Source: SAR324 cluster bacterium (GTDB lineage Bacteria > SAR324 > NAC60-12). Taken from it: a DNA stretch of 64,000 nt. A program made the position numbers and the translations under genes. Positions 27,330 to 61,549 of this stretch are shown in pieces. Position 1 is the first letter of the stretch, and the number at the start of each line of letters is the position of its first letter. The DNA is taken from assembly GCA_015231825.1 (NCBI GenBank), contig JADGAV010000009.1, positions 147,870 to 211,869 of the forward strand, written 5' to 3'. The notes under the pieces were generated by a model that saw only the letters and a list, made by a program, of their open reading frames with translations, was not told the DNA's origin and did not search any database.

Positions 27330-28136
27330 CTAAATGAAGCGGTCCGCCCCGCCAGAGGCTTCGATAGTGGCTCCGGTAACAAAACCGTTTCTTTCAGAGA
27401 CCAAAAAGGCAGTGAGAGCGGCAATTTCCTCCGGTGTTCCAAATCGTCCGATCGGCGTTTTTTCAGCTCCAAGTTTTCCAATCAATTCTTCGTTGGAGAG
27501 ATTCGACCATTCCGGTCGGTTTTCACGAACTTTCGGAATCATATTGGATTGCCAGTTATCGGTCGTGACAGCTCCAACTCCAATTGCGTTGACAAGGATT
27601 CCGTCTTTTGCATGTTCCAAAGCTAAAGATTTGGTAAAGTTGTTGATAGCAGCGCTCAGTGCATGGGAAATCATTAAGGTTGGATTAGGGAAAATTCCCC
27701 CCACTGATGAAATATTGACAATTCGCCCTCCACCGTTTTTTTGCATCAACGGAACAACGGAACGGCAGCAATTCACCATCCCGTATAGTTTCACTTCCGT
27801 CATCGATTTCCAGTCTTCTTCTGAAGTTTGCAGCAGAGCACCGGCTTGTGCTCTTCCTGCGTTGTTGACCAGGATGTTCACGGTGCCGAAACAACGGACC
27901 GCTTCTTCGACAATGCGGCTGGAGTCTTCAGAGATTGAAATATCTGCTGCTATTCCGGCAACTGCGGCATTTGTTTTGTCACGAATGCGCGTGATCGCAT
28001 CCTGCAGCCGATCATTGTTCCGTGCAATCATAAAAACTTTTGCCTGGTCAAATGCCAGCTGTTCTGCGATTGCAAATCCGATTCCGGTGCTCGCTCCTGT
28101 GATCAGAGCAACTTTATTTTTGATTTGAAGATCCAT
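27330..28136 (-). CDS. SDR family oxidoreductase
   Basis: VALITGASTGIG cofactor motif; NNAG; YxxxK region; 268 aa. Confidence 0.8.
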   Translation of the reverse strand: MDLQIKNKVALITGASTGIGFAIAEQLAFDQAKVFMIARNNDRLQDAITRIRDKTNAAVAGIAADISISEDSSRIVEEAVRCFGTVNILVNNAGRAQAGALLQTSEEDWKSMTEVKLYGMVNCCRSVVPLMQKNGGGRIVNISSVGGIFPNPTLMISHALSAAINNFTKSLALEHAKDGILVNAIGVGAVTTDNWQSNMIPKVRENRPEWSNLSNEELIGKLGAEKTPIGRFGTPEEIAALTAFLVSERNGFVTGATIEASGGADRFI

Positions 28137-51074: not shown

Positions 51075-51842
51075 TTGATGATGAACGTTATTGAAGTCAA
51101 TAAACTGGTCACTAAATACGGAGCAAGGGTGATTCACAATGAATTGACCTTTAACATTCAAAAGGGAGAGATTTTTGTGATTTTGGGCGGCAGCGGCTGC
51201 GGGAAAAGTACCCTGCTCAAGCACCTGAGCCGCTTGCTCATGCCCAGCAGCGGCCAAATACTGATCGATGGCACCGATGTTACCTTTCTTCATGAAAGTT
51301 CCTTGCAGGAAGCAATGAGGCCGGTCGGATTTATGTTTCAATCGGGTGCTTTATTTGGTTCGCTTACACTTCTGGAAAATGTGGCGGTTCCCTTGTTTAA
51401 ATTCACGAAATTGGACAAAGAGACCGTGAAAGCAATATCCCGGGTCAAATTGGGGATGGTCGGCCTGGGTGGATTTGAGGGGTACTATCCCCATGAAATC
51501 AGCGGCGGTATGAAAAAAAGGGCAGGAGTTGCAAGAGCAATGGCGCTTGATCCTAAAATTCTTTTGCTGGATGAACCCAGCGCGGGCCTGGATCCGATCA
51601 GTGCGGATGAACTGGACGATTTGATTTTAGGATTGAACCGGGCGTTGGGGATTACTTTTGTGATCGTGACCCACGAATTGCAGAGCATTTTCAAAGTCGC
51701 TCAGAGAGTAATCATGTTGGGGCGGGGAAACATACTCGCGGAAGGGGATCCGAATCTTCTGAAAGATTCCGAGAAACCCTGGGTATCTGATTTTTTTAAC
51801 CGCCGTGGTAAATTCAAACAATATTTGACGAGCAATCCATGA
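51075..51842 (+). CDS. mlaF: MlaF-family ABC transporter ATP-binding protein
   Basis: Walker A GGSGCGKST, signature ISGGMKKRAGVARAM, Walker B LLLDEP. Confidence 0.85.
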   Translation: MMMNVIEVNKLVTKYGARVIHNELTFNIQKGEIFVILGGSGCGKSTLLKHLSRLLMPSSGQILIDGTDVTFLHESSLQEAMRPVGFMFQSGALFGSLTLLENVAVPLFKFTKLDKETVKAISRVKLGMVGLGGFEGYYPHEISGGMKKRAGVARAMALDPKILLLDEPSAGLDPISADELDDLILGLNRALGITFVIVTHELQSIFKVAQRVIMLGRGNILAEGDPNLLKDSEKPWVSDFFNRRGKFKQYLTSNP

Positions 51843-53788
51843 CTCCAAAAAGCAAGAATATTTTAGTTGGCATGTTTGTGATTTTTTTCTCCGCAGGAGC
51901 TGTTGCTTTTATAACCTGGCTTGGTACGACCACAGTCAGAGAAGAAACCGATACTTACCTCGCCTACCTTGAAGAATCGGTTTCAGGTCTCTCTCAAAAC
52001 TCTCCTGTTAAATACAAAGGGGTGACAATAGGCCAGGTGGAGAAAATCAGGATCAACCCGGAAAATTCCAACCAGGTTGAACTGCAATTGATGATTAAGC
52101 GTGGCACGCCCATCAAAGTTGATTCGGAATTGATCTTGACCTCTCAGGGGATTACCGGACTCCAATATATTGAAATAACTGGAGGAAGTGAAGAGAAAGG
52201 ACTGTTGAAAGCAAAGCCAGGAGACAATTTCCCGGTCATTGTCTCCGGAAAATCTACCCTGGCGACAGTAGAAGCCGCAATTGGCCCGATGCTGAGCAAT
52301 ATCAACCTCGCGATTGAGGACATTCGGCAGGTGCTCAAAAGCGCCAGTCCTGAACGCTTGACGAATATTTTGTCGGATGTTGAAAGTATCACCGAAACAG
52401 TAGCGGATAATTCTACAGCGATTGTTGAAGATCTCAATCAAACCGGAGAAGGTCTTAAACAGGTAGTGGAACAGACCAATCAGCTGATGGATAATGCCAA
52501 TAATTTTTTTAATAATCGTGAAGATCAGGTCGTGGCGATGATTGGAGAAGTTCAACAGGCTTCCAGCGCGGTTAACCGTTTGTTGGGAAGCATCGAACAG
52601 GAAAAAATCATTGGGAATCTCGGTAAAACCGTCAGTCATGTTGATCAACTTGTAGAAAATTTAAATGGAAGGGGAGAAGGTCCTTTGTTGGATCTCGTTG
52701 AAGGAATGAGTCAATCCACCACCCGTTTGAACCGCCTGCTTGCGCGATTTGAAGAGGAGCAGATTGTGCAGGGAGTCGGGAAAACAATCACTCGTGTTGA
52801 CCAACTGGTAGCCAATGTGGAAGAAAAGTTCAATGGACCTGTTGAGTCGATGCTCAGTGAAATTCAGCAGTCGGCTCAAGCGGCCAATCGGATCGTAACA
52901 AAAGTCGAAGAAGAGCAGCTTGTTGAAGGAGTGGGACAAGTCGTTGCCAAGGTTGAAAAAATTGTAGATAGTCTGGATCAGACGGCCAGCAATGCGGATC
53001 AGTTTTTTGCAAACTTGAATAAAACTGCTGGAAGTGTCGAAATATTTATTTCAAATTTAAACCAGACAATGACCAAAACCGATCAGTTCATTTCCCACAT
53101 GGATCTGACGCTCGTTTATGTTGACCAATTCATCAGTAATCTGGATCAAACAACCAGCAACGTTGATCAATTTGTTTCGAATCTTAATACTACTGCTTCC
53201 AAAGTGGATCAATTTATTGCCGGTCTTGATCAGACAACCGAGGGTATCGAAGATTTTATGCAAGTATTGAGTGAAACTGCCGCGAAGACGGATCGGTTTA
53301 TTGGCAATCTGGATCGCACCACTGGCAACGTGGATCGATTTGTGGGCAATCTGGATCAAACTGCAGTAAAAGCCGACCGGTTCATGGTGAATTTGAATCA
53401 GTCGGTCGGCAATATGAATCAATTTATCGCGACGATGAATCGGGCGGCCGAGAAGACGGATCAGTTTGTTGCCACGTTGAATCAGACGGCGACTGAAATC
53501 GATCAGCTCTTTGATACTTTGAATGATCAAGTGGTCGAAAATGAATTCCAGGCGATGCCGAAATCAATCAATTTGACGCTGAAAGAAATTCGAAAACTGA
53601 CGGGGACCTTAAATCAATCGGCAGAAGATGCAGAAATTTCTTCGACCATGGAGGATTTGAAGAAAACTCTGGAGGACATCCAGACATTTGCTCAAACCTG
53701 GACTCAGGTGGCAGAGGAACTTGAAAACCAGCCGTCTGCCTTGATATTTGGGGAGTCTAAAGCGGAAATCAATGTTGCTCCAGAATGA
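51839..53788 (+). CDS. mlaD: MCE/MlaD-family protein with long C-terminal coiled-coil tandem-repeat region
   Basis: N-terminal TM segment, MCE domain (SPVKYKGVTIGQVEKIRI), then about 14 tandem copies of a 14-residue repeat (xDQFxxNLxQTxxx). Confidence 0.75.
   Translation: MTPKSKNILVGMFVIFFSAGAVAFITWLGTTTVREETDTYLAYLEESVSGLSQNSPVKYKGVTIGQVEKIRINPENSNQVELQLMIKRGTPIKVDSELILTSQGITGLQYIEITGGSEEKGLLKAKPGDNFPVIVSGKSTLATVEAAIGPMLSNINLAIEDIRQVLKSASPERLTNILSDVESITETVADNSTAIVEDLNQTGEGLKQVVEQTNQLMDNANNFFNNREDQVVAMIGEVQQASSAVNRLLGSIEQEKIIGNLGKTVSHVDQLVENLNGRGEGPLLDLVEGMSQSTTRLNRLLARFEEEQIVQGVGKTITRVDQLVANVEEKFNGPVESMLSEIQQSAQAANRIVTKVEEEQLVEGVGQVVAKVEKIVDSLDQTASNADQFFANLNKTAGSVEIFISNLNQTMTKTDQFISHMDLTLVYVDQFISNLDQTTSNVDQFVSNLNTTASKVDQFIAGLDQTTEGIEDFMQVLSETAAKTDRFIGNLDRTTGNVDRFVGNLDQTAVKADRFMVNLNQSVGNMNQFIATMNRAAEKTDQFVATLNQTATEIDQLFDTLNDQVVENEFQAMPKSINLTLKEIRKLTGTLNQSAEDAEISSTMEDLKKTLEDIQTFAQTWTQVAEELENQPSALIFGESKAEINVAPE
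52950..53545 (+). repeat. in-frame 42-bp tandem repeats (about 14 copies) within the MCE gene
   Basis: DNA periodicity gatcaatttgtttcgaatct / gatcagtttgttgccacgtt etc. Protein repeats VDQFVSNLNTTASK / VDQFIAGLDQTTEG / TDRFIGNLDRTTGN ... Confidence 0.7.
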
Positions 53789-54966: not shown

Positions 54967-55440
54967 TTCTCTTTACCTTCTATTCTTTACAATATCCTGT
55001 AATGCCTTTTACAATGAATACAATAGTTCGGGAAATTCCATTTGATATTTCTTTTTTGAACGGTTTAAATTTTTTCTTTTTCATTATTAATCCGTTGGCG
55101 AGAGTCAGGCAGGGCCCAGGCTCCACTTTGAGATCAAATGCCGTTTTCAAAGATGGAAACCCAATCACGGAAACGTTTTGGATAGAAGTTTTTTGAGATC
55201 TGATGCTACAAAAAATGTTAAAAAAGGAACGGGTCTCTCGATCCTCAGAACCACGATCTGAATGTTACGGAAGAACTTTAAAAATAGAATAACTGACTGA
55301 AAAAATAATAACAAATCGGTTCTGTAAATTTATTGATTCTCATTTTGTTTTCAGCAGTTTAGAGTCCAGAAGAAATTTGAAATTCTCTCCTGTTCATGTA
55401 GGATTGGTGAAAACAGGAGAATTGTTGAAAAGTTCAATAC

Positions 55441-56094
55441 TTGTTCATCAAACAAGAAGACTGGGTGAAAAAGCGATTTGTAAAGAACGGGTCAGCGAGT
55501 GAGAACAGAGTGAATGAACGTCGAAAAAACAGAATAGAGGCCTATTACCAAAATAAAATTCCGAATATCGAGATTTTGATTGATAATGTATGGGATCCGC
55601 ACAATGTCGCTGCTGTGGCAAGAACCGCGGATGGGTTGGGGATTTCTGTGCTGGATCTGTATTACACATACAATGAATTTCCAAAACTTCATAAAGTCGG
55701 CAAGAAAACCAGTGCCAGTGCCAATCAATGGATTCGGTTCGAAAAAATCGAGAACCTGTCCAAATTTGTCGAGCAAAAAAGATCGGCAGGATTCCAATTT
55801 CTCGGGACTGGAATGGGAGGAAATGCGAAGCAGTTGAACCTGTTTCAATTTCCTGAAAAATGCGTGATTATAATGGGATCTGAAAGCACTGGGATGTCTC
55901 CGGAATTGAAAGAAATTTGTGATGAACTGATCTATATCCCGATGGTGGGGATGGTCACCAGTTACAACATTTCTGTTGCAGCCGCCCTCATAATGTACGA
56001 AATTTTCAGTCAGAAAGGAAATGCACTACAAATGAAACCGGAAGAAGATTTCTGCAACAATTACAACCGGGGAAGACTTCCTCCAGGGCGTTGA
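55441..56094 (+). CDS. SpoU/TrmH family RNA 2'-O-methyltransferase
   Basis: SPOUT motifs GNVGAxxR-like VAAVARTADGLGIS; IIMGSESTGMS; YIPMVGMVTSYNISVAAALIMYEI. Confidence 0.75.
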   Translation: MFIKQEDWVKKRFVKNGSASENRVNERRKNRIEAYYQNKIPNIEILIDNVWDPHNVAAVARTADGLGISVLDLYYTYNEFPKLHKVGKKTSASANQWIRFEKIENLSKFVEQKRSAGFQFLGTGMGGNAKQLNLFQFPEKCVIIMGSESTGMSPELKEICDELIYIPMVGMVTSYNISVAAALIMYEIFSQKGNALQMKPEEDFCNNYNRGRLPPGR

Positions 56095-56348
56095 TACCCC
56101 TTTTAAAAACGGACTTAGCATGCAAAAACCATTTGGATGTGCCACCTATGTTCTCATGATAATCGGGCTCATTTTATTATTGACCTGCATCGGTGGATCC
56201 TCCTCGGCCAATTCAAAAACGGGCATTTCCAGGGCTACAGATATGCGAGTCTTTTGCTTGGAGTGTGAAATTCCGCTCAGGTCAAATGAAATTCATTTTT
56301 GAAATTGCTCAATTTCCCTTCAATGCGAATTTACAAAGACTTTGCTTA

Positions 56349-57200
56349 TTACGCGAACAATTTGTTGACTCCATCTGCAATACTTCTGATGTGTGCGGGA
56401 GTCGTGCCCCTTCCTCCTCCAATCATAGCCGGTTCCAGGGGGAGGAGCTTGCTGAGTGTTTCTGTAAAAGCAGAAGAAATTTCGCCAAAATGAAGCGGGG
56501 CAGGTTCATCCAGCAAAAGACTGACAATCCCAAACTGATCCACGGAAGACTGAACCAATTCTGTCAGATGTGCTTCCTGCCAACTGGCTTGAATTCCGAT
56601 AAAATCTGAGATTTGCTGCACTTCTGCCAGTTTGCCGAGGAAATCACGCGGATCATCATTTTGAAAACGCAAATGGGCGACCACCTGTTTTGGGGTGGAA
56701 CGCTTTGCTACTCTTGCCGCCAGTTTCAGGTCTTCAAAGTCTGTGAATTCACTGAGCATGAAAAAGAGTACTCCTGTGTCTGACTGGTAAATCAATTGTT
56801 CTCCATACGATTTTTCCAGCAGGTGGTTTGGGATTTTCCCGGAAACATCTTTGTGGACCGAAGTGATGCTTCCTGCGGGAATACCTGCTATCCCTGCACC
56901 CTCCCTCAGCAGGGCCATTCCGTTGTTGTTGATATTTTCTCCTCGATCAATCAGGCCCAGAGATTCCAATACGAGACGATGGGCTCCTTCTGTGTTGGTT
57001 CGCAAAATCGCTGCTCCTGACTGCAGATATTGTTTGTAAGTTTGAGAAACCAGCTCAGGGTGGGTGATGTTGGCGATAAAGGAAGCTTCTGTTTCCGGAA
57101 ATCCCAGGTTCTGCAGCAGAAGCGGTTTGCTGCCATCGCATACAACCGGAGCATTTTTTTCCAGGTAGTCTAACAGAGAGAATTTGGGAGGACGTGCCAT
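56349..57200 (-). CDS. homocysteine S-methyltransferase (Hcy-binding) domain protein with a non-canonical zinc site
   Basis: LLDYLEKNAPVVCDGSKPLLLQNLG and AAILRTNTEGAH match the pfam02574 N-terminus. The GGCCGTTPxHI motif reads GGGRGTTPAHI. Confidence 0.55.
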   Translation of the reverse strand: MARPPKFSLLDYLEKNAPVVCDGSKPLLLQNLGFPETEASFIANITHPELVSQTYKQYLQSGAAILRTNTEGAHRLVLESLGLIDRGENINNNGMALLREGAGIAGIPAGSITSVHKDVSGKIPNHLLEKSYGEQLIYQSDTGVLFFMLSEFTDFEDLKLAARVAKRSTPKQVVAHLRFQNDDPRDFLGKLAEVQQISDFIGIQASWQEAHLTELVQSSVDQFGIVSLLLDEPAPLHFGEISSAFTETLSKLLPLEPAMIGGGRGTTPAHIRSIADGVNKLFA

Positions 57201-57229
57201 GGGATGGTCTTATTTGGAATTATGGAACT

Positions 57230-58294
57230 CTACAGCCTGCCGTGGCATTTTTTGTACTTTTTTCTGGAACCGCAGGGACATGGACCATTTCTTTCAGCAT
57301 TATAGAAAATCGGATCATTGGCTGAAACGGTTTCTCTCAGCGCTGATTCCAGGTTTTTGTCTGTTATTGTCGCATCATTTCCAACAAAATTTCCGAGAAA
57401 TTTGCCGCATTCAGAAAGTGGTTTCAAGGTTTTTGCTCTGGAAACCAGTGAAAAAGGAAACTGATATTTTTCCTGAAGCGCTGTTGCTTTTGAGACAGTC
57501 TCTTCAGCCCAGTCTAGAGGGATATCGGTTCCAAAAACAACAATGGTTCTTTCCAGCAAAAGATAAACATGTCGAAATGCATTTTGAATCGTGTTGATTT
57601 TTCTGAGAAACAGAGGATCAGACTCGATCATATTGAACAGCACCACGCCCTGCGCATTCAAATGCTTTTTACACCGCTGATAGAAATCGGCTGAAGCAAG
57701 GTGCAAAGGACTGAAACCGGTGCCGCGGAATGCATCAACAAAAATGAAATCATAACAAACGTTTTCTGCACGACTTTCCAAATAGTCACGCCCGTCCATA
57801 ATCACCGCGCTTTGTCGATGATCTGGTTCAAATCCAAAAAACCGCCTGGCCAAAACAAGAGTTTCAGCATCAATATCCGTGCTTTCAATTGTCAACTCAG
57901 GAAAATAATGATGCAAAACCAAAGGAATTCTGCCTCCTGCCAGGCCGATCATGTAGACTCTTTCCGGGTTTGCATTCCAAAGAAGAGAAAGCATCATTGC
58001 CTGATTATACGGTGTCGGGCTTAAATCGAAAGGATCATTTAAATCGATGGCCGACATCGCGCCGCTTGAAGCGGGATTGGGATGCAGTGAATGCGGATCT
58101 ACAAAATACATCCTTACAATGGATGAACTTTCTTTAACAATTTTGATTCGATGCAGATCAGACCATTTTTCGTAGATCGTCCCGATGGGTTTGTCCTGCA
58201 GCCAGTGCAGTCGTTTTGACACGGATATTCTGTTTTGGTCAAACCAGCCACTTTTTTGCATTGGCCTGCCTCTGGGAATTTTTTTTGAAATCAA
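57230..58294 (-). CDS. spermidine-synthase-like (PABS-fold) SAM-dependent transferase with C-terminal SEC-C metal-binding motif
   Basis: MIGLAGGRIPLVLHHY...TDIDAE...FVDAF resembles aminopropyltransferase. C-terminal CPCGSRKKYKKCHG is a SEC-C motif. Confidence 0.6.
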   Translation of the reverse strand: MISKKIPRGRPMQKSGWFDQNRISVSKRLHWLQDKPIGTIYEKWSDLHRIKIVKESSSIVRMYFVDPHSLHPNPASSGAMSAIDLNDPFDLSPTPYNQAMMLSLLWNANPERVYMIGLAGGRIPLVLHHYFPELTIESTDIDAETLVLARRFFGFEPDHRQSAVIMDGRDYLESRAENVCYDFIFVDAFRGTGFSPLHLASADFYQRCKKHLNAQGVVLFNMIESDPLFLRKINTIQNAFRHVYLLLERTIVVFGTDIPLDWAEETVSKATALQEKYQFPFSLVSRAKTLKPLSECGKFLGNFVGNDATITDKNLESALRETVSANDPIFYNAERNGPCPCGSRKKYKKCHGRL

Positions 58295-58484
58295 TTCTCT
58301 TTCATTTCAAAGCCTTCAAAATTAGCTTTCCGATGAGGCGGTGGTTTTGCAGTTTTTGAATTTGAACTTCATCTGCAGGGAAGTCTGATAACGGACCTTA
58401 AGATCCGTCATTGACGCGTTCCCTGCAAAGGCCTGGGGAATTGGGGATTGTGTTGACGGATCACTAACTTGAAAATTATCTTGC

Positions 58485-59573
58485 CTATCGTCGTCTGCCA
58501 AATCCGCGAAAACTGCGGCCTGAGCTGCGGCCAAAACTAAATCCGCTGGAGCGGCGAGTGGGTGCCCTGAAAGTCTTTCTGGGGGCGGTCGTTCTCTGAG
58601 AAGCAACTGAAGATCGGGTTTTTCCAAATCCTCCAGAACGTGTAACATTTTGGCTGTTTCGGGATTTAAATTGGGTGCTCTTGATTTGATTGAGCGATTT
58701 GGGCGGTACTTTTTTGCTGGTGGAAGCAACGGATTGACCTCGGGAGTTCTTAGCCGCTGTAGAGGATGGGGCCGCTTTACTGAGACCTGCCACGTTTCGA
58801 TTTTGGCTGATGGCCGTGGTGGTTCTGGGAGCATAACCAGCTCCGTATGCGCCAAATCCGCCGTAGTATCGGGGAGCGAACATCCAGTTCATCATCATCG
58901 AAGTCATCAGGATGCTGGAAAGGCTGGTATGGTGATGGTAGTATGGCTGAGAATGACCGCTGTATAATTGCTGGTTGGGGGCGGTCTGTATCATCATATT
59001 CTGATCGTTTTCCTTGATTGCCGCCGTGCTCATGATCTCAATGGATTTGTTTTCTGCGATGTCCACCCAGGCCTTTTGATCACTGCCTTCAGGAAGGGTT
59101 TTTACTTCGGATGGATCGGGTACCCGAATGGAAAGCAATAAATTTTCGGAATCTTCTGCAAGTGCCTGGGGGACCACCATCACAGGATCTGCAATTCCGT
59201 CGTTGTTTAAATCAATCGTGCTGATGTCTCGAATTTTGTTGGAAACTTTAGTCACCAGAGTTTGTGCAAAATCTTTTTCCTGTGCGCCGGAGTTCACGGT
59301 TTCCTTCATTGCTTCTTCAACAAGTCCAGGCACTACTTTGGGATCCAGATTTTCGGTCAGATCCACCCCCAATTCTTCGATAGCGGCCTGGTTCAGTGTG
59401 TCACTGACTCCGACGACAGTTCGGTCAGGGAGAGTCATTGATTTTTGTACCTGCCGGCCATCTCCCTTAAAAAAGATCCAATAGCCGATGAGTAGAAAAA
59501 TCGCGATCAGAATTCCTTTGGTCGAAAAGATCCCTTGCACGATATCGTCTTTCTCTTTGGAGTTTTTTGCCAT
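58485..59573 (-). CDS. hypothetical membrane-anchored protein with Arg/Gly/Ser-rich C-terminal tail
   Basis: TM anchor GILIAIFLLIGYWIFF. Tyr/Gly segment YYGGFGAYGAGYAP. Tail ...SSGFSFGRSSGRSFRGFGRRR. Confidence 0.45.
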   Translation of the reverse strand: MAKNSKEKDDIVQGIFSTKGILIAIFLLIGYWIFFKGDGRQVQKSMTLPDRTVVGVSDTLNQAAIEELGVDLTENLDPKVVPGLVEEAMKETVNSGAQEKDFAQTLVTKVSNKIRDISTIDLNNDGIADPVMVVPQALAEDSENLLLSIRVPDPSEVKTLPEGSDQKAWVDIAENKSIEIMSTAAIKENDQNMMIQTAPNQQLYSGHSQPYYHHHTSLSSILMTSMMMNWMFAPRYYGGFGAYGAGYAPRTTTAISQNRNVAGLSKAAPSSTAAKNSRGQSVASTSKKVPPKSLNQIKSTQFKSRNSQNVTRSGGFGKTRSSVASQRTTAPRKTFRAPTRRSSGFSFGRSSGRSFRGFGRRR

Positions 59574-59932
59574 GTCCCCTCGATTCTTTCTGGTAAATAA
59601 GTGCCGGTGTCAAAGCCGGAGCTTCTCAAAACAGCGTACTGCCCCAATTGTGTTTGGAAGTGAAACCGAATTTATCATATCCTCAGGCAAGTGCCAAATT
59701 TTTCCTCAATGATTCCCGGGTTGAGTGAAAGAAGGATCCACGGTTTTTGATTTGACCGGCCAGAAATCTGCTTTTCTTTTTGCCTTGAAAAGGCATCGTT
59801 TGCGGACTATATTTCAGGATTAATATGTTCATTTCTGCTCATTTTTCCCGTTGCCAAGTTCGGTATTGACAAGAAACTTTTTTCCATCCGCACCGGTTCC
59901 CATTCCTAAAATATACTCATTATACTCTCCTC

Positions 59933-61549
59933 ATGACTTTAGAAACTGATACGAGTTACGGCATCGTGATTGCCGGCCACGGCAGTCGCGATAAAGAAGG
60001 TGTCCAGGAATTTGAGGACACCATTGCGCTTTTAAAAAAACAACACCCGCATAAAGTGGTCACTCATGGATTTTTAGAATTTGCATCACCTACGATTGAT
60101 TATGCAATTCGGGAAAACATTAAAATGGGGTCGAAGCGCATCGTCATGATCCCTGCGATTTTATTTGCAGCAAGTCATGGCAAGAATGACATGCCCATTG
60201 AGATGTTGAGTACAAAAAAGGAATTTCCGGATGTGGATTTTCAATATGCCGGGGCAATGGAGCTGCATCCGCTTTTGTTGAAATTGTTTCAGGAGAGAAT
60301 CATCGAGGCAGAAGCCCGTTCTTCCCGGACAATCAAACGGTCAGAAAGTTTGCTGGTGATTGTGGGACGGGGTACGACGGATTCTGATACCAATTCAAAT
60401 GTCAGCAAACTGACCCGCATGATCGAGGAAGGGATGGGTTTTGGAGCTTCCTTTGTCTGCTATTCCGGGACTGCGGAACCGATGGTTCGAAACGGGATTG
60501 AATTTGCAGCAAAGATGGGTTTCAAGCGTCTGGTCGTGATTCCATATTTTTTGTTCACCGGAGTTTTGATCAAGCGAATCTATCAGGCGGCTGATGAAGT
60601 CAGCGAACTTTTTCCTGATCTTGAGATTCTGAAGGCGCAATACTTGGGTGTGCATGAAAACGTGACCAATGTTTGGATGGAAAAGGCGGAGGAAGGGATT
60701 AATGGCAAGGCGGTCATGAATTGTACGCTTTGCAAATACCGCACACAAATTGTTGGTTTTGAAAAGGAGGTAGGAACCGTGCAGGAGGCGCACCATCTCC
60801 ATGTGAGAGGCCTGAACGAAAACAACGAATCTCAGGAACATCATCATCACGATCATTCTCATGGGCATCACCACCACCATGCCTCAGACGAGGTCGAAAA
60901 ACAGAAAGCGGAAATTTATGTCCCCCATCCCATTGAAGCCGAGAGTTTTAAAATAATTGAGGAGCAATACGACTGGTTGAAAATTCCGGAATCTCATCGT
61001 CCGGTCATCCAGCGCCTGGTTCACACCAGCGGAGATTTTTCAATTGTCGAGGATATCAGTATTTCAAAAGATGCCGTCGAATCAGGGGTTCGTGCCCTGA
61101 TTTCCGGAAGCGGAATCATCACAGATGTGACGATGGTCAAAAGTGGTTTGAAAAGGGCTTTGCTTTCCCAAATTGGAACCGAGGTCGTCTGCGAGGTTCA
61201 TGAAGAAGAAACCCGGCTGCTTGCGAAGGCAGCAACAATAACTCGTTCTGCTGCCGGTATCCGTCGAGCCTGGCAAAAACGAGGGGATGATGTGATTGTC
61301 GCGATTGGAGACGCACCAACCGCAGTGATGGAAACGATTCGTCTCATCAAGGAACAGAACTGGCGTCCTCATTTGATCATCGGTCTGCCGGTGGGTTTTG
61401 TCGGAACACAAGAATGCAAGGAGCAGCTGAGGCAAATTGAGGAAGTTCCTGTTATCACCAATTCTGGCAATAGAGGGGGATCTCCCTGGGCTGCGGCAGT
61501 CGTCAATGCGCTAATGATTCGAGCTGTTAATCATTTAGCCGTTTCATGA
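59933..61549 (+). CDS. cbiX: fusion of long-form sirohydrochlorin cobaltochelatase CbiX (two CbiX domains plus His-rich segment) and precorrin-8X methylmutase CbiC
   Basis: Two CbiX-like halves (GIVIAGHGSRD...; LLVIVGRGTTDSD...). His-rich HHHHDHSHGHHHHH. C-terminal CbiC/CobH motifs (VHTSGDF, IGDAPTAV, GLPVGFVG). Confidence 0.8.
   Translation: MTLETDTSYGIVIAGHGSRDKEGVQEFEDTIALLKKQHPHKVVTHGFLEFASPTIDYAIRENIKMGSKRIVMIPAILFAASHGKNDMPIEMLSTKKEFPDVDFQYAGAMELHPLLLKLFQERIIEAEARSSRTIKRSESLLVIVGRGTTDSDTNSNVSKLTRMIEEGMGFGASFVCYSGTAEPMVRNGIEFAAKMGFKRLVVIPYFLFTGVLIKRIYQAADEVSELFPDLEILKAQYLGVHENVTNVWMEKAEEGINGKAVMNCTLCKYRTQIVGFEKEVGTVQEAHHLHVRGLNENNESQEHHHHDHSHGHHHHHASDEVEKQKAEIYVPHPIEAESFKIIEEQYDWLKIPESHRPVIQRLVHTSGDFSIVEDISISKDAVESGVRALISGSGIITDVTMVKSGLKRALLSQIGTEVVCEVHEEETRLLAKAATITRSAAGIRRAWQKRGDDVIVAIGDAPTAVMETIRLIKEQNWRPHLIIGLPVGFVGTQECKEQLRQIEEVPVITNSGNRGGSPWAAAVVNALMIRAVNHLAVS

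Follow-up and report, generated by a model that had tools for sequence, protein, structure and literature searches.

The spermidine synthase fold serves more than one kind of chemistry. METTL13-C, which has this fold, is an N-terminal protein methyltransferase (PMC6109062), and both METTL13-C and the fungal enzyme NHMT act on protein N-terminal residues (PMC6109062, PMC10349129). In METTL13-C, S-adenosylmethionine (SAM) is contacted by Gly503 (motif I), Glu524 (Post I), and Asp551-Gly552 (DG motif), and Asp575, Asp577, and Asn647 lie on the substrate side; in human spermidine synthase (SpdS), two Post II aspartates, Asp173 and Asp176, bind the amine and take part in catalysis (PMC6109062). In GxG(D/E)G, the acidic residue binds decarboxylated SAM, and its absence set NHMT apart from spermidine synthases (PMC10349129). 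A different kind of module, the MBD (metal-binding domain) found in SecA and YecA (AscA), binds SecB and ribosomes (bioRxiv 10.1101/2020.07.21.215244). Here, we consider two adjacent genes in a 64,000-nucleotide stretch of DNA (the window) from contig JADGAV010000009.1 of a SAR324 cluster bacterium: the upstream gene encodes a protein with the spermidine synthase fold that ends in a SecA-type (SEC-C) motif, and the downstream gene encodes a homocysteine S-methyltransferase-type barrel (PF02574) in which the zinc-ligand positions are replaced.

What do these proteins do, and do they work together? On balance, we favor a reading in which the two genes are chance neighbors, the barrel protein is likely non-catalytic, and the upstream protein would be an amine methyltransferase of nascent N-termini. 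Both open reading frames (ORFs) lie on the minus strand, as a first-pass annotation of the window had it:

56349..57200, minus strand: downstream gene, encoding the zinc-less barrel protein; 283 amino acids (aa), ATG start
57201..57229, minus strand: spacer between the two genes; 29 nucleotides (nt), read directly
57230..58294, minus strand: upstream gene, maximal ORF; 354 aa, TTG start
57230..58261, minus strand: upstream gene, likely extent; 343 aa, ATG at 58261

The source of both genes is a SAR324 cluster metagenome-assembled genome (MAG), and 100% identical NCBI proteins are encoded on a 220-kb contig. The start of the upstream gene is placed at 58261 because the alignment of homologs, including P0210 from SAR324, begins there; a GAGG sequence lies 7 nt upstream of this ATG. 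The gene thus most likely spans 57230..58261 (343 aa), and the end initially given, 58294, is that of the maximal ORF, ~33 nt too far. The spacer (30 nt at first pass) is short. Sequence inspection and a scan revealed no gene overlap, no obvious Shine-Dalgarno sequence, and no terminator-like site in 57201-57229, and its promoter-like matches were not above chance; the translational coupling proposed along with the gap is not supported. The two genes are probably co-transcribed in the window.

The upstream protein as a putative amine methyltransferase

Several matches would suit a genuine polyamine aminopropyltransferase, in which the SEC-C motif would be an incidental metal-binding tail: the upstream ORF passes PF01564, if marginally (23.5 bits, cutoff 22.9), passes NF037959 (49.5 bits, cutoff 40), and scores 98 bits against PRK04457. 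Yet the cutoff of this last NCBIfam model is 304 bits, and the other equivalog cutoffs are missed as widely (PRK00811, 42 vs. 260 bits; TIGR00417, 36 vs. 250 bits). When solved structures are searched with the single sequence, METTL13-C (5wcj) is found at E = 2.4e-14 and the best spermidine synthase at E = 2.4e-6; a profile of the family favors METTL13-C by 38 bits, with 89.5 bits (E = 2.4e-24) for 5wcj vs. 51.8 bits (E = 7e-13) for the best aminopropyltransferase. For the AlphaFold model (pLDDT 92), too, 5wcj comes first in Foldseek (27% identity, root-mean-square deviation 2.7 Å). Many aminopropyltransferases follow close behind (E ~1e-12 to 1e-11), and their matches cover the N-terminal β domain too, a point in favor of polyamine chemistry.

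The active-site residues point the other way. Motif I lies at:

57923..57946, minus strand: motif I, 'GLAGGRIP', with Gly at the D/E position of GxG(D/E)G

Among the 130 family members for which columns were counted, this position is Gly in 109 and Ala in 21; an acid is found in 0/130, which by the criterion used for NHMT (PMC10349129) speaks against an aminopropyltransferase. The Post I acid is D/E in all 130 ('TDID' in the window protein) and the DG motif is conserved ('DGR'). The first Post II Asp, equivalent to METTL13 Asp575 and SpdS Asp173, is invariant (130/130), as would be expected of an aminopropyltransferase as well; the position near SpdS Asp176, however, reads F/Y and would seem to have lost the second one. 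Fusions of this family to a deformylase, described below, have no polyamine logic either. Because the GxG(D/E)G acid is absent, the equivalog cutoffs are missed widely, and METTL13-C is the preferred match, the upstream protein is presumably not an aminopropyltransferase, and we consider polyamine synthesis an unlikely function. We conclude that it is a putative SAM-dependent amine methyltransferase, related but not orthologous to METTL13-C. Of the initial description, a SEC-C-tagged, PABS-fold, spermidine-synthase-like transferase, the fold and the tag are retained; transfer of aminopropyl or alkyl groups is not supported for a protein that is closest to METTL13-C and devoid of the acid. A literature search found no paper on SEC-C-tagged spermidine-synthase-like proteins.

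Why would such an enzyme carry a SecA-type tag? The motif is an exact one and is located at the very end of the protein:

57236..57292, minus strand: SEC-C/SecA-type metal-binding motif, CPCGSRKKYKKCH, an exact CxCxSx6CH

It scores 29.7 bits against PF02810 (cutoff 20.4) over residues 335-353 of the 354-aa ORF, and this segment matches the SecA MBD peptides 1tm6, 1sx0, and 1ozb as well as the C-terminus of YchJ. The motif is present in 70/130 family members; equally, 70 members are at least 320 aa long, and most of the tagless ones are shorter than 320 aa. An NCBIfam methionine aminopeptidase model, PRK12318, aligns with the SEC-C motif at its N-terminal positions 2-19, and this model therefore provides a precedent for a SEC-C tag on N-terminal processing enzymes. 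A link to N-terminal processing also comes from four family members in which a peptide deformylase, the methyltransferase, and SEC-C are fused into one polypeptide:

L025:7149-8636, plus strand: deformylase-methyltransferase-SEC-C fusion; 495 aa, directly after an unfused paralog
L038:5464-6960, plus strand: deformylase-methyltransferase-SEC-C fusion; 499 aa
L039:4835-6295, plus strand: deformylase-methyltransferase-SEC-C fusion; 486 aa
Protein P0255: deformylase-methyltransferase-SEC-C fusion; 481 aa

In both fusions that were read (L025 and P0255), the deformylase part retains GxGLAAPQ, E(G/S)C, and HExxH as intact motifs, and the L025 fusion scores above the NCBIfam deformylase cutoffs. As a separate observation, Hsp90/HtpG-like ATPase genes lie near the fusions in L038 and L039 and also in L037, which carries an unfused homolog; genes for TPR proteins are likewise found near several fusion loci.

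Kinship to METTL13-C, the SecA-type tag, and the repeated deformylase fusions together lead us to infer that the upstream protein would act at the ribosome or close to it, methylating nascent proteins on their α-amino group. A broader and more tentative proposal is that the family at large, widespread and uncharacterized in bacteria, might comprise methyltransferases docked on the ribosome or SecB that carry out co-translational α-amino methylation, sometimes as a single deformylate-then-methylate enzyme.

A PF02574 barrel and its zinc-less clade

Canonical PF02574 enzymes hold zinc through three Cys residues, which we take, from the MetH and BHMT structures, to be the one that follows the N of strand 6 ('xNC') and the two adjacent ones of GGCCG; the Glu of an 'ET' motif on strand 4 presumably binds the amino group of homocysteine. 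The downstream protein belongs to this family over its whole length and not, as had first appeared, at its N-terminus only: it matches PF02574 with 62 bits (cutoff 22; E = 1.1e-16), residues 20-276 aligning to positions 2-281 of the 283-position profile. Among NCBIfam models, it is matched best by that of the bifunctional homocysteine S-methyltransferase/MTHFR of the YitJ type, in its N-terminal half, and YitJ-type domains, not MtrH/CmuA, are its nearest subfamily. The AlphaFold2 (AF2) model, made with 16 homologs (pLDDT 94), superposes in Foldseek on the homocysteine barrels of MetH, BHMT, and MmuM with TM scores of 0.76-0.80; for that of T. maritima MetH (3bof, 1q85), TM is 0.78-0.80 and E is 1e-17.

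Within this well-preserved fold, the metal site is gone. HMMER alignments place GIQAS of the barrel protein opposite GINCS of T. maritima MetH, and GGGRGTTPAHI opposite GGCCGTGPEHI of T. thermophilus MetH:

56586..56588, minus strand: codon of A205, replacing the first zinc-ligand Cys (GINC to GIQA); from the translation GIQAS and the T. maritima alignment
56409..56414, minus strand: codons of G263-R264, replacing the Cys-Cys of GGCCG; from the translation GGGR and the T. thermophilus MetH alignment

All three zinc-ligand positions are replaced (A205, G263, and R264), and the position of the homocysteine-binding Glu is S150. Replacement of the Cys pair had been noticed at first pass; loss of the third ligand had not. 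An alternative zinc site was considered and ruled out, since C21 is the only Cys of the protein and several relatives have G, L, or M in its place; in the alignment, no nearby Cys restores the site. The barrel protein is predicted to be without Zn-thiolate activation of a thiol, as first suggested from the Cys pair.

How far does the loss extend? A word-indexed search returned only ~20 close relatives, whose named sources are SAR324 except for 'Deltaproteobacteria bacterium TL4', and a scan across the species representatives of GTDB brought up 16 loci with a barrel homolog, all in SAR324-type MAGs. A HMMER profile search, which covered 1.8 billion representatives, revealed a step in the scores: ~30 clusters reach at least 200 bits, a second tier lies at 120-155 bits, and the general family lies at ~100 bits. 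Every member of the top tier is without all three Cys, and throughout the alignment of this clade NC becomes Q-A/S and GGCCGT becomes GGGxxT. In the second tier ('CCC.EH'), the ligand columns read 'GIS-C', 'LEHF', and 'GGCCG', and the named members come from SAR324 or Candidatus Lambdaproteobacteria. In a neighbor-joining tree, 29 zinc-less representatives form one clade, and the 'CCC.EH' group is its sister. Two genes of this sister clade were located:

L022:5034-5879: 'CCC.EH' sister-clade gene, SAR324
L029:6001-6870: 'CCC.EH' sister-clade gene, SAR324

Column statistics were taken over 80 canonical, 16 sister-clade, and 25 zinc-less-clade representatives. The first ligand column (A205) is Cys in 75/80 canonical and 16/16 sister sequences and A, L, V, G, S, or I in the zinc-less clade. 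The second (G263) is Cys in 79/80 and 16/16 and Gly in all 25 zinc-less proteins, and the third (R264) is Cys in 78/80 and 16/16 and hypervariable in the zinc-less clade, at the 85th entropy percentile. The 'ET' Glu column (S150) behaves as the third ligand does: it is Glu in 79/80 canonical and 11/16 sister sequences and hypervariable, again at the 85th percentile, in the zinc-less clade. Other positions are held fast among these proteins, which span 37-70% identity: R67, E88, Y138, and D141 are invariant and common to the sister clade, H270 is invariant and common to the whole family, and F7 and L9 of an N-terminal FSLL motif (25/25 each) are confined to the zinc-less clade. We read this pattern as one ancient loss of the catalytic center followed by relaxed constraint at the vacated positions, with the barrel scaffold and the new N-terminal element kept under purifying selection. 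Five PF02574 representatives outside this main clade (P0078, P0087, P0091, P0132, and P0183) are also without all three Cys; the zinc site seems to have been lost several times in the family.

Is the barrel protein an enzyme of a new kind? Through the conserved polar residues of its remodeled pocket, it might now transfer methyl or alkyl groups without zinc, or serve as a hydrolase or lyase of a sulfonium or an amino acid. Such a change of function would accord with a clade that stays intact across its wide span of identities, with R67, E88, Y138, D141, and H270 invariant and Q204 present in 20/25, with a confident AF2 model in which the barrel is preserved, and with the sporadic zinc-less sequences elsewhere, which indicate that the loss recurs. 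However, the sister clade, which has its zinc ligands, shares most of the invariant polar residues; these would therefore predate the loss of zinc and not form a replacement site. The lost-ligand and lost-Glu positions are among the most variable columns, no new Cys/His cluster has arisen, the single Cys is unconserved, and the gene has no conserved metabolic neighborhood. We regard a new catalytic activity as possible but somewhat doubtful. Because the zinc Cys and the Glu are gone and their positions vary freely, the protein would be incapable of Zn-thiolate activation; most likely, it is non-catalytic and binds a ligand or a partner. Among the possibilities raised at first pass, the 'non-catalytic paralog' fits best, and the suspected loss of zinc chemistry is borne out across a monophyletic clade. 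The barrel protein is best described as a putative zinc-less derivative in a small homocysteine-methyltransferase-like subfamily known so far only from SAR324/Lambdaproteobacteria. A literature search found no paper on zinc-less PF02574 proteins.

Genomic context of the two genes

The first-pass annotation had combined the two genes into a functional operon, and such a dedicated operon could encode an uncharacterized alkyl-transfer pathway in which both proteins would work on one SAM- or homocysteine-derived metabolite, perhaps with a tie to cobalamin. Three features invite this idea: the genes are on the same strand, 29 nt apart, with no terminator between them; both folds belong to SAM/homocysteine chemistry; and cobalamin biosynthesis (cbi) genes lie 1.6 kb away. 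Conservation of gene order argues against it. In 22 loci with a barrel homolog and flanks of 6-10 kb (16 of them from GTDB species representatives), tblastn with the upstream protein gave no match, and a barrel homolog was absent from all 39 loci carrying homologs of the upstream gene; these tests took in, for each gene, the nearest relatives whose flanking DNA could be used, and the co-occurrence that a functional pair would predict was found in neither set (0/22 and 0/39). The two families also differ in their taxonomic range: the upstream-gene family is found in SAR324, Gemmataceae, several cyanobacteria, and soil and marine metagenomes, and the named members of the barrel clade are SAR324.

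The neighbors of the barrel gene vary by lineage. It is preceded by bioD in L001-L003, L007, and L011, the loci nearest to the window; bioD was considered as a CobQ/CbiA-type link to B12, which was rejected since it scores as dethiobiotin synthase. In a marine SAR324 clade (L013-L021, including JCVI-SC AAA005), glmS precedes the barrel gene, which overlaps the glmS stop by 4 bp and comes last in a string of genes for a TPR protein, cmk, a glmU-like gene, and glmS (e.g., L013:3583-10840); no coupling observed in the window is as tight as this overlap. Unknown proteins of 407 or 424 aa precede the homolog in L005 and L012, and in L006/L009 and L010 it has no same-strand upstream neighbor. An inference of pathway from the context of the barrel gene was rejected, as its upstream partners change from lineage to lineage. 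What is conserved lies on its other side: in L003 and L011, the nearest syntenic genomes, SpoU and FemAB-like genes are kept there, which puts the synteny break exactly between the two genes of the window. At 68% identity, relatives of the upstream gene are followed by an RraA-like or a response-regulator gene, and clustering of ORFs across the 39 loci yielded nothing but small clusters, namely those of a generic ABC ATPase, of TPR proteins, and, near the deformylase fusions, of an Hsp90-like ATPase. The flanking genes on the two sides of the pair are:

55441..56094, plus strand: SpoU-type RNA methylase (Pfam), convergent with the barrel gene and its conserved neighbor in L003 and L011
58485..59573, minus strand: 362-aa ORF located 5' of the methyltransferase gene; no Pfam or NCBIfam match

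The second of these, not the barrel gene, is the actually conserved neighbor of the methyltransferase gene: in the TARA contig L026, the methyltransferase homolog comes after a homolog of the 362-aa ORF (69% identity over 151 residues). The ORF has a hydrophobic helix at its N-terminus and an Arg/Ser/Gly-rich tail at its C-terminus (...RRSSGFSFGRSSGRSFRGFGRRR).

A link to cobalamin fares no better. The CbiX-CbiC, CbiD, and corrin methylase genes begin at 59933 on the plus strand, 1.6 kb from the pair as reported at first pass; they are divergent from it and separated by 58485..59573, cobalamin, SAM, and S-adenosylhomocysteine (SAH) riboswitches were not detected in 55000-60500, and cbi genes are absent from the loci syntenic with the barrel gene. 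On these grounds, a functional tie to the pair was rejected as unsupported. We consider a shared alkyl-transfer pathway very improbable; judged by these loci, the pair is a presumably accidental juxtaposition in one SAR324 genome, not a conserved functional unit.

Against what does our reading, of chance neighbors with a likely non-catalytic barrel and a methyltransferase of nascent N-termini, have to be weighed? Several observations tell against it. For the pair, the contig nearest to the barrel gene (P0002, 70% identity) is only 1.5 kb long, too short to reveal adjacency, and the 29-nt gap without a terminator means that the genes may be co-expressed and have some lineage-specific functional link. 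For the barrel, the conserved polar set (D22, R67, N69, T70, E88, Q135, Y138, D141, and H270) would also fit a new enzyme activity. For the upstream protein, the family has no broadly conserved neighbors, and the case for the N-terminus as target is built from homology, the tag, and four fusions. The METTL13 Asp577 column, two residues past the invariant Post II Asp and near SpdS Asp176, is F/Y (also V/I/A/C) in the family, and Asn647 aligns with Thr; because these contacts are not kept, the substrate must presumably differ from that of METTL13-C. SEC-C motifs also occur on proteins of many other functions (bioRxiv 10.1101/2020.07.21.215244; PMC13377102), of which YchJ is reported to be a redox-sensing regulator (PMC13377102).

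Together with the presence of the motif in just 70/130 retrieved members, the divergent contact residues and the versatility of the tag would fit a methyltransferase with another target, be it a small-molecule amine or, in a component of Sec or the ribosome, a lysine or other side chain, with SEC-C used for SecB/membrane targeting or for redox/metal sensing. We find this doubtful: the deformylase fusions arose four times independently, and a deformylase exposes the α-amine of the nascent chain; moreover, the two characterized methyltransferases with the spermidine synthase fold both act on protein N-terminal residues (PMC6109062, PMC10349129). Nascent N-termini are the target that we prefer.

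Elsewhere in the window, a few features deserve a record of their own. The gene at 59933..61549 (plus strand) encodes a 538-aa fusion protein in which a His-rich linker, HHHHDHSHGHHHHH, joins CbiX (cobaltochelatase) to CbiC (precorrin-8X methylmutase); a cobalamin riboswitch was not detected in its upstream region, 59574-59932. At 51839..53788 (plus strand), a 649-aa MlaD-domain protein ends an mlaE (STAS-fused)/mlaF/mlaD cluster; compared with the syntenic loci L003 and L011, this cluster is an insertion. The long C-terminal part of this protein consists of degenerate ~14-residue repeats (...NL[DN]QT...[VT]DQF[IV]...) seen in the translation; at the DNA level, Tandem Repeats Finder (TRF) reports only a short 21-nt array at 53290-53357. 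Finally, ORFs of 268 aa (27330..28136, minus strand) and 264 aa (27334..28128, plus strand) occupy nearly identical coordinates on opposite strands.

Implications and comparison with known systems

SAR324 is an abundant deep-ocean lineage, and how its genes are named matters. The annotation 'homocysteine S-methyltransferase family protein' probably misdescribes the barrel gene, whose product would be incapable of zinc-dependent thiol methylation, and 'spermidine synthase' or 'fused MFS/spermidine synthase' probably misdescribes the upstream gene, whose product is without the residue for decarboxylated SAM; metabolic reconstructions of SAR324 would be wrong if they tallied these genes under methionine salvage or polyamine synthesis. 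For decades, several bacterial proteins have been known to be methylated at the N-terminus, and the enzymes responsible are, to our knowledge, mostly unidentified. Of the two leads, the methyltransferase is the more valuable, since a tag of the ribosome/SecB-binding type and recurrent deformylase fusions make it a testable candidate; the interest of the locus is mainly in this deformylase-fused, SEC-C-tagged family. If the proposal is true, METTL13-C and NHMT would have their first bacterial counterpart in this family, which would add a new step to N-terminal protein maturation. The zinc-less clade and its zinc-bearing sister, in one phylum, offer a clean natural pair for the study of how a metalloenzyme barrel is repurposed.

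With the MetH/YitJ/BHMT/MmuM barrels (PF02574), the barrel protein shares a full-length (β/α)8 fold and the scaffold motifs DG, TNT, and GG..T.P.H; it differs in being without the three zinc Cys and the homocysteine-binding Glu and in having the invariant, clade-specific FSLL motif at its N-terminus. It is a 283-aa stand-alone protein that carries no partner domain of the folate, B12, or MTHFR kind. Closer at hand are the stand-alone 'CCC.EH' proteins (e.g., MCZ6553341.1 and MCZ6531430.1), which come from the same phylum, have the same length, and have the motifs R-T-N-T, R.EAINN, and IYLSDTG in common with the zinc-less clade. They keep the three Cys and, mostly, the Glu, and their genes have a different setting: at both loci examined, they are divergent to a gene for a MiaB/RimO-like radical-SAM methylthiotransferase (UPF0004 + Radical_SAM + TRAM).

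The upstream protein can be placed among three kinds of relatives. With SpeE and other aminopropyltransferases (PF01564), it has in common the overall fold, including the N-terminal β domain, as well as the DG motif and, of the Post II aspartates, the first; it does not have the acid that selects decarboxylated SAM or, it would seem, the second Post II Asp. With METTL13-C (5wcj), the eEF1A N-terminal methyltransferase and its best match in sequence, profile, and fold, it shares a motif I (GxGGG) that has no acidic residue, together with the DG motif, the Post I acid, and the Asp575 equivalent; the bacterial protein has, in addition, an aminopropyltransferase-like N-terminal β domain and a C-terminal SEC-C extension, does not have the lysine-methyltransferase partner domain, and does not conserve Asp577 and Asn647. 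Fungal NHMT (AN4663), an N-terminal histidine methyltransferase compared here through its published description, likewise has a spermidine synthase fold without the GxG(D/E)G acid; it is a eukaryotic enzyme of the secretory pathway and is brought to its substrates by a 7TM targeting module, in place of which the upstream protein has a SecA-type motif (PMC10349129). That motif is the exact CxCxSx6CH of the SecA MBD, of which YecA and YchJ carry copies, and is located at the extreme C-terminus of the upstream protein; what distinguishes this family from them is that the motif sits on a methyltransferase or on a deformylase-methyltransferase fusion.

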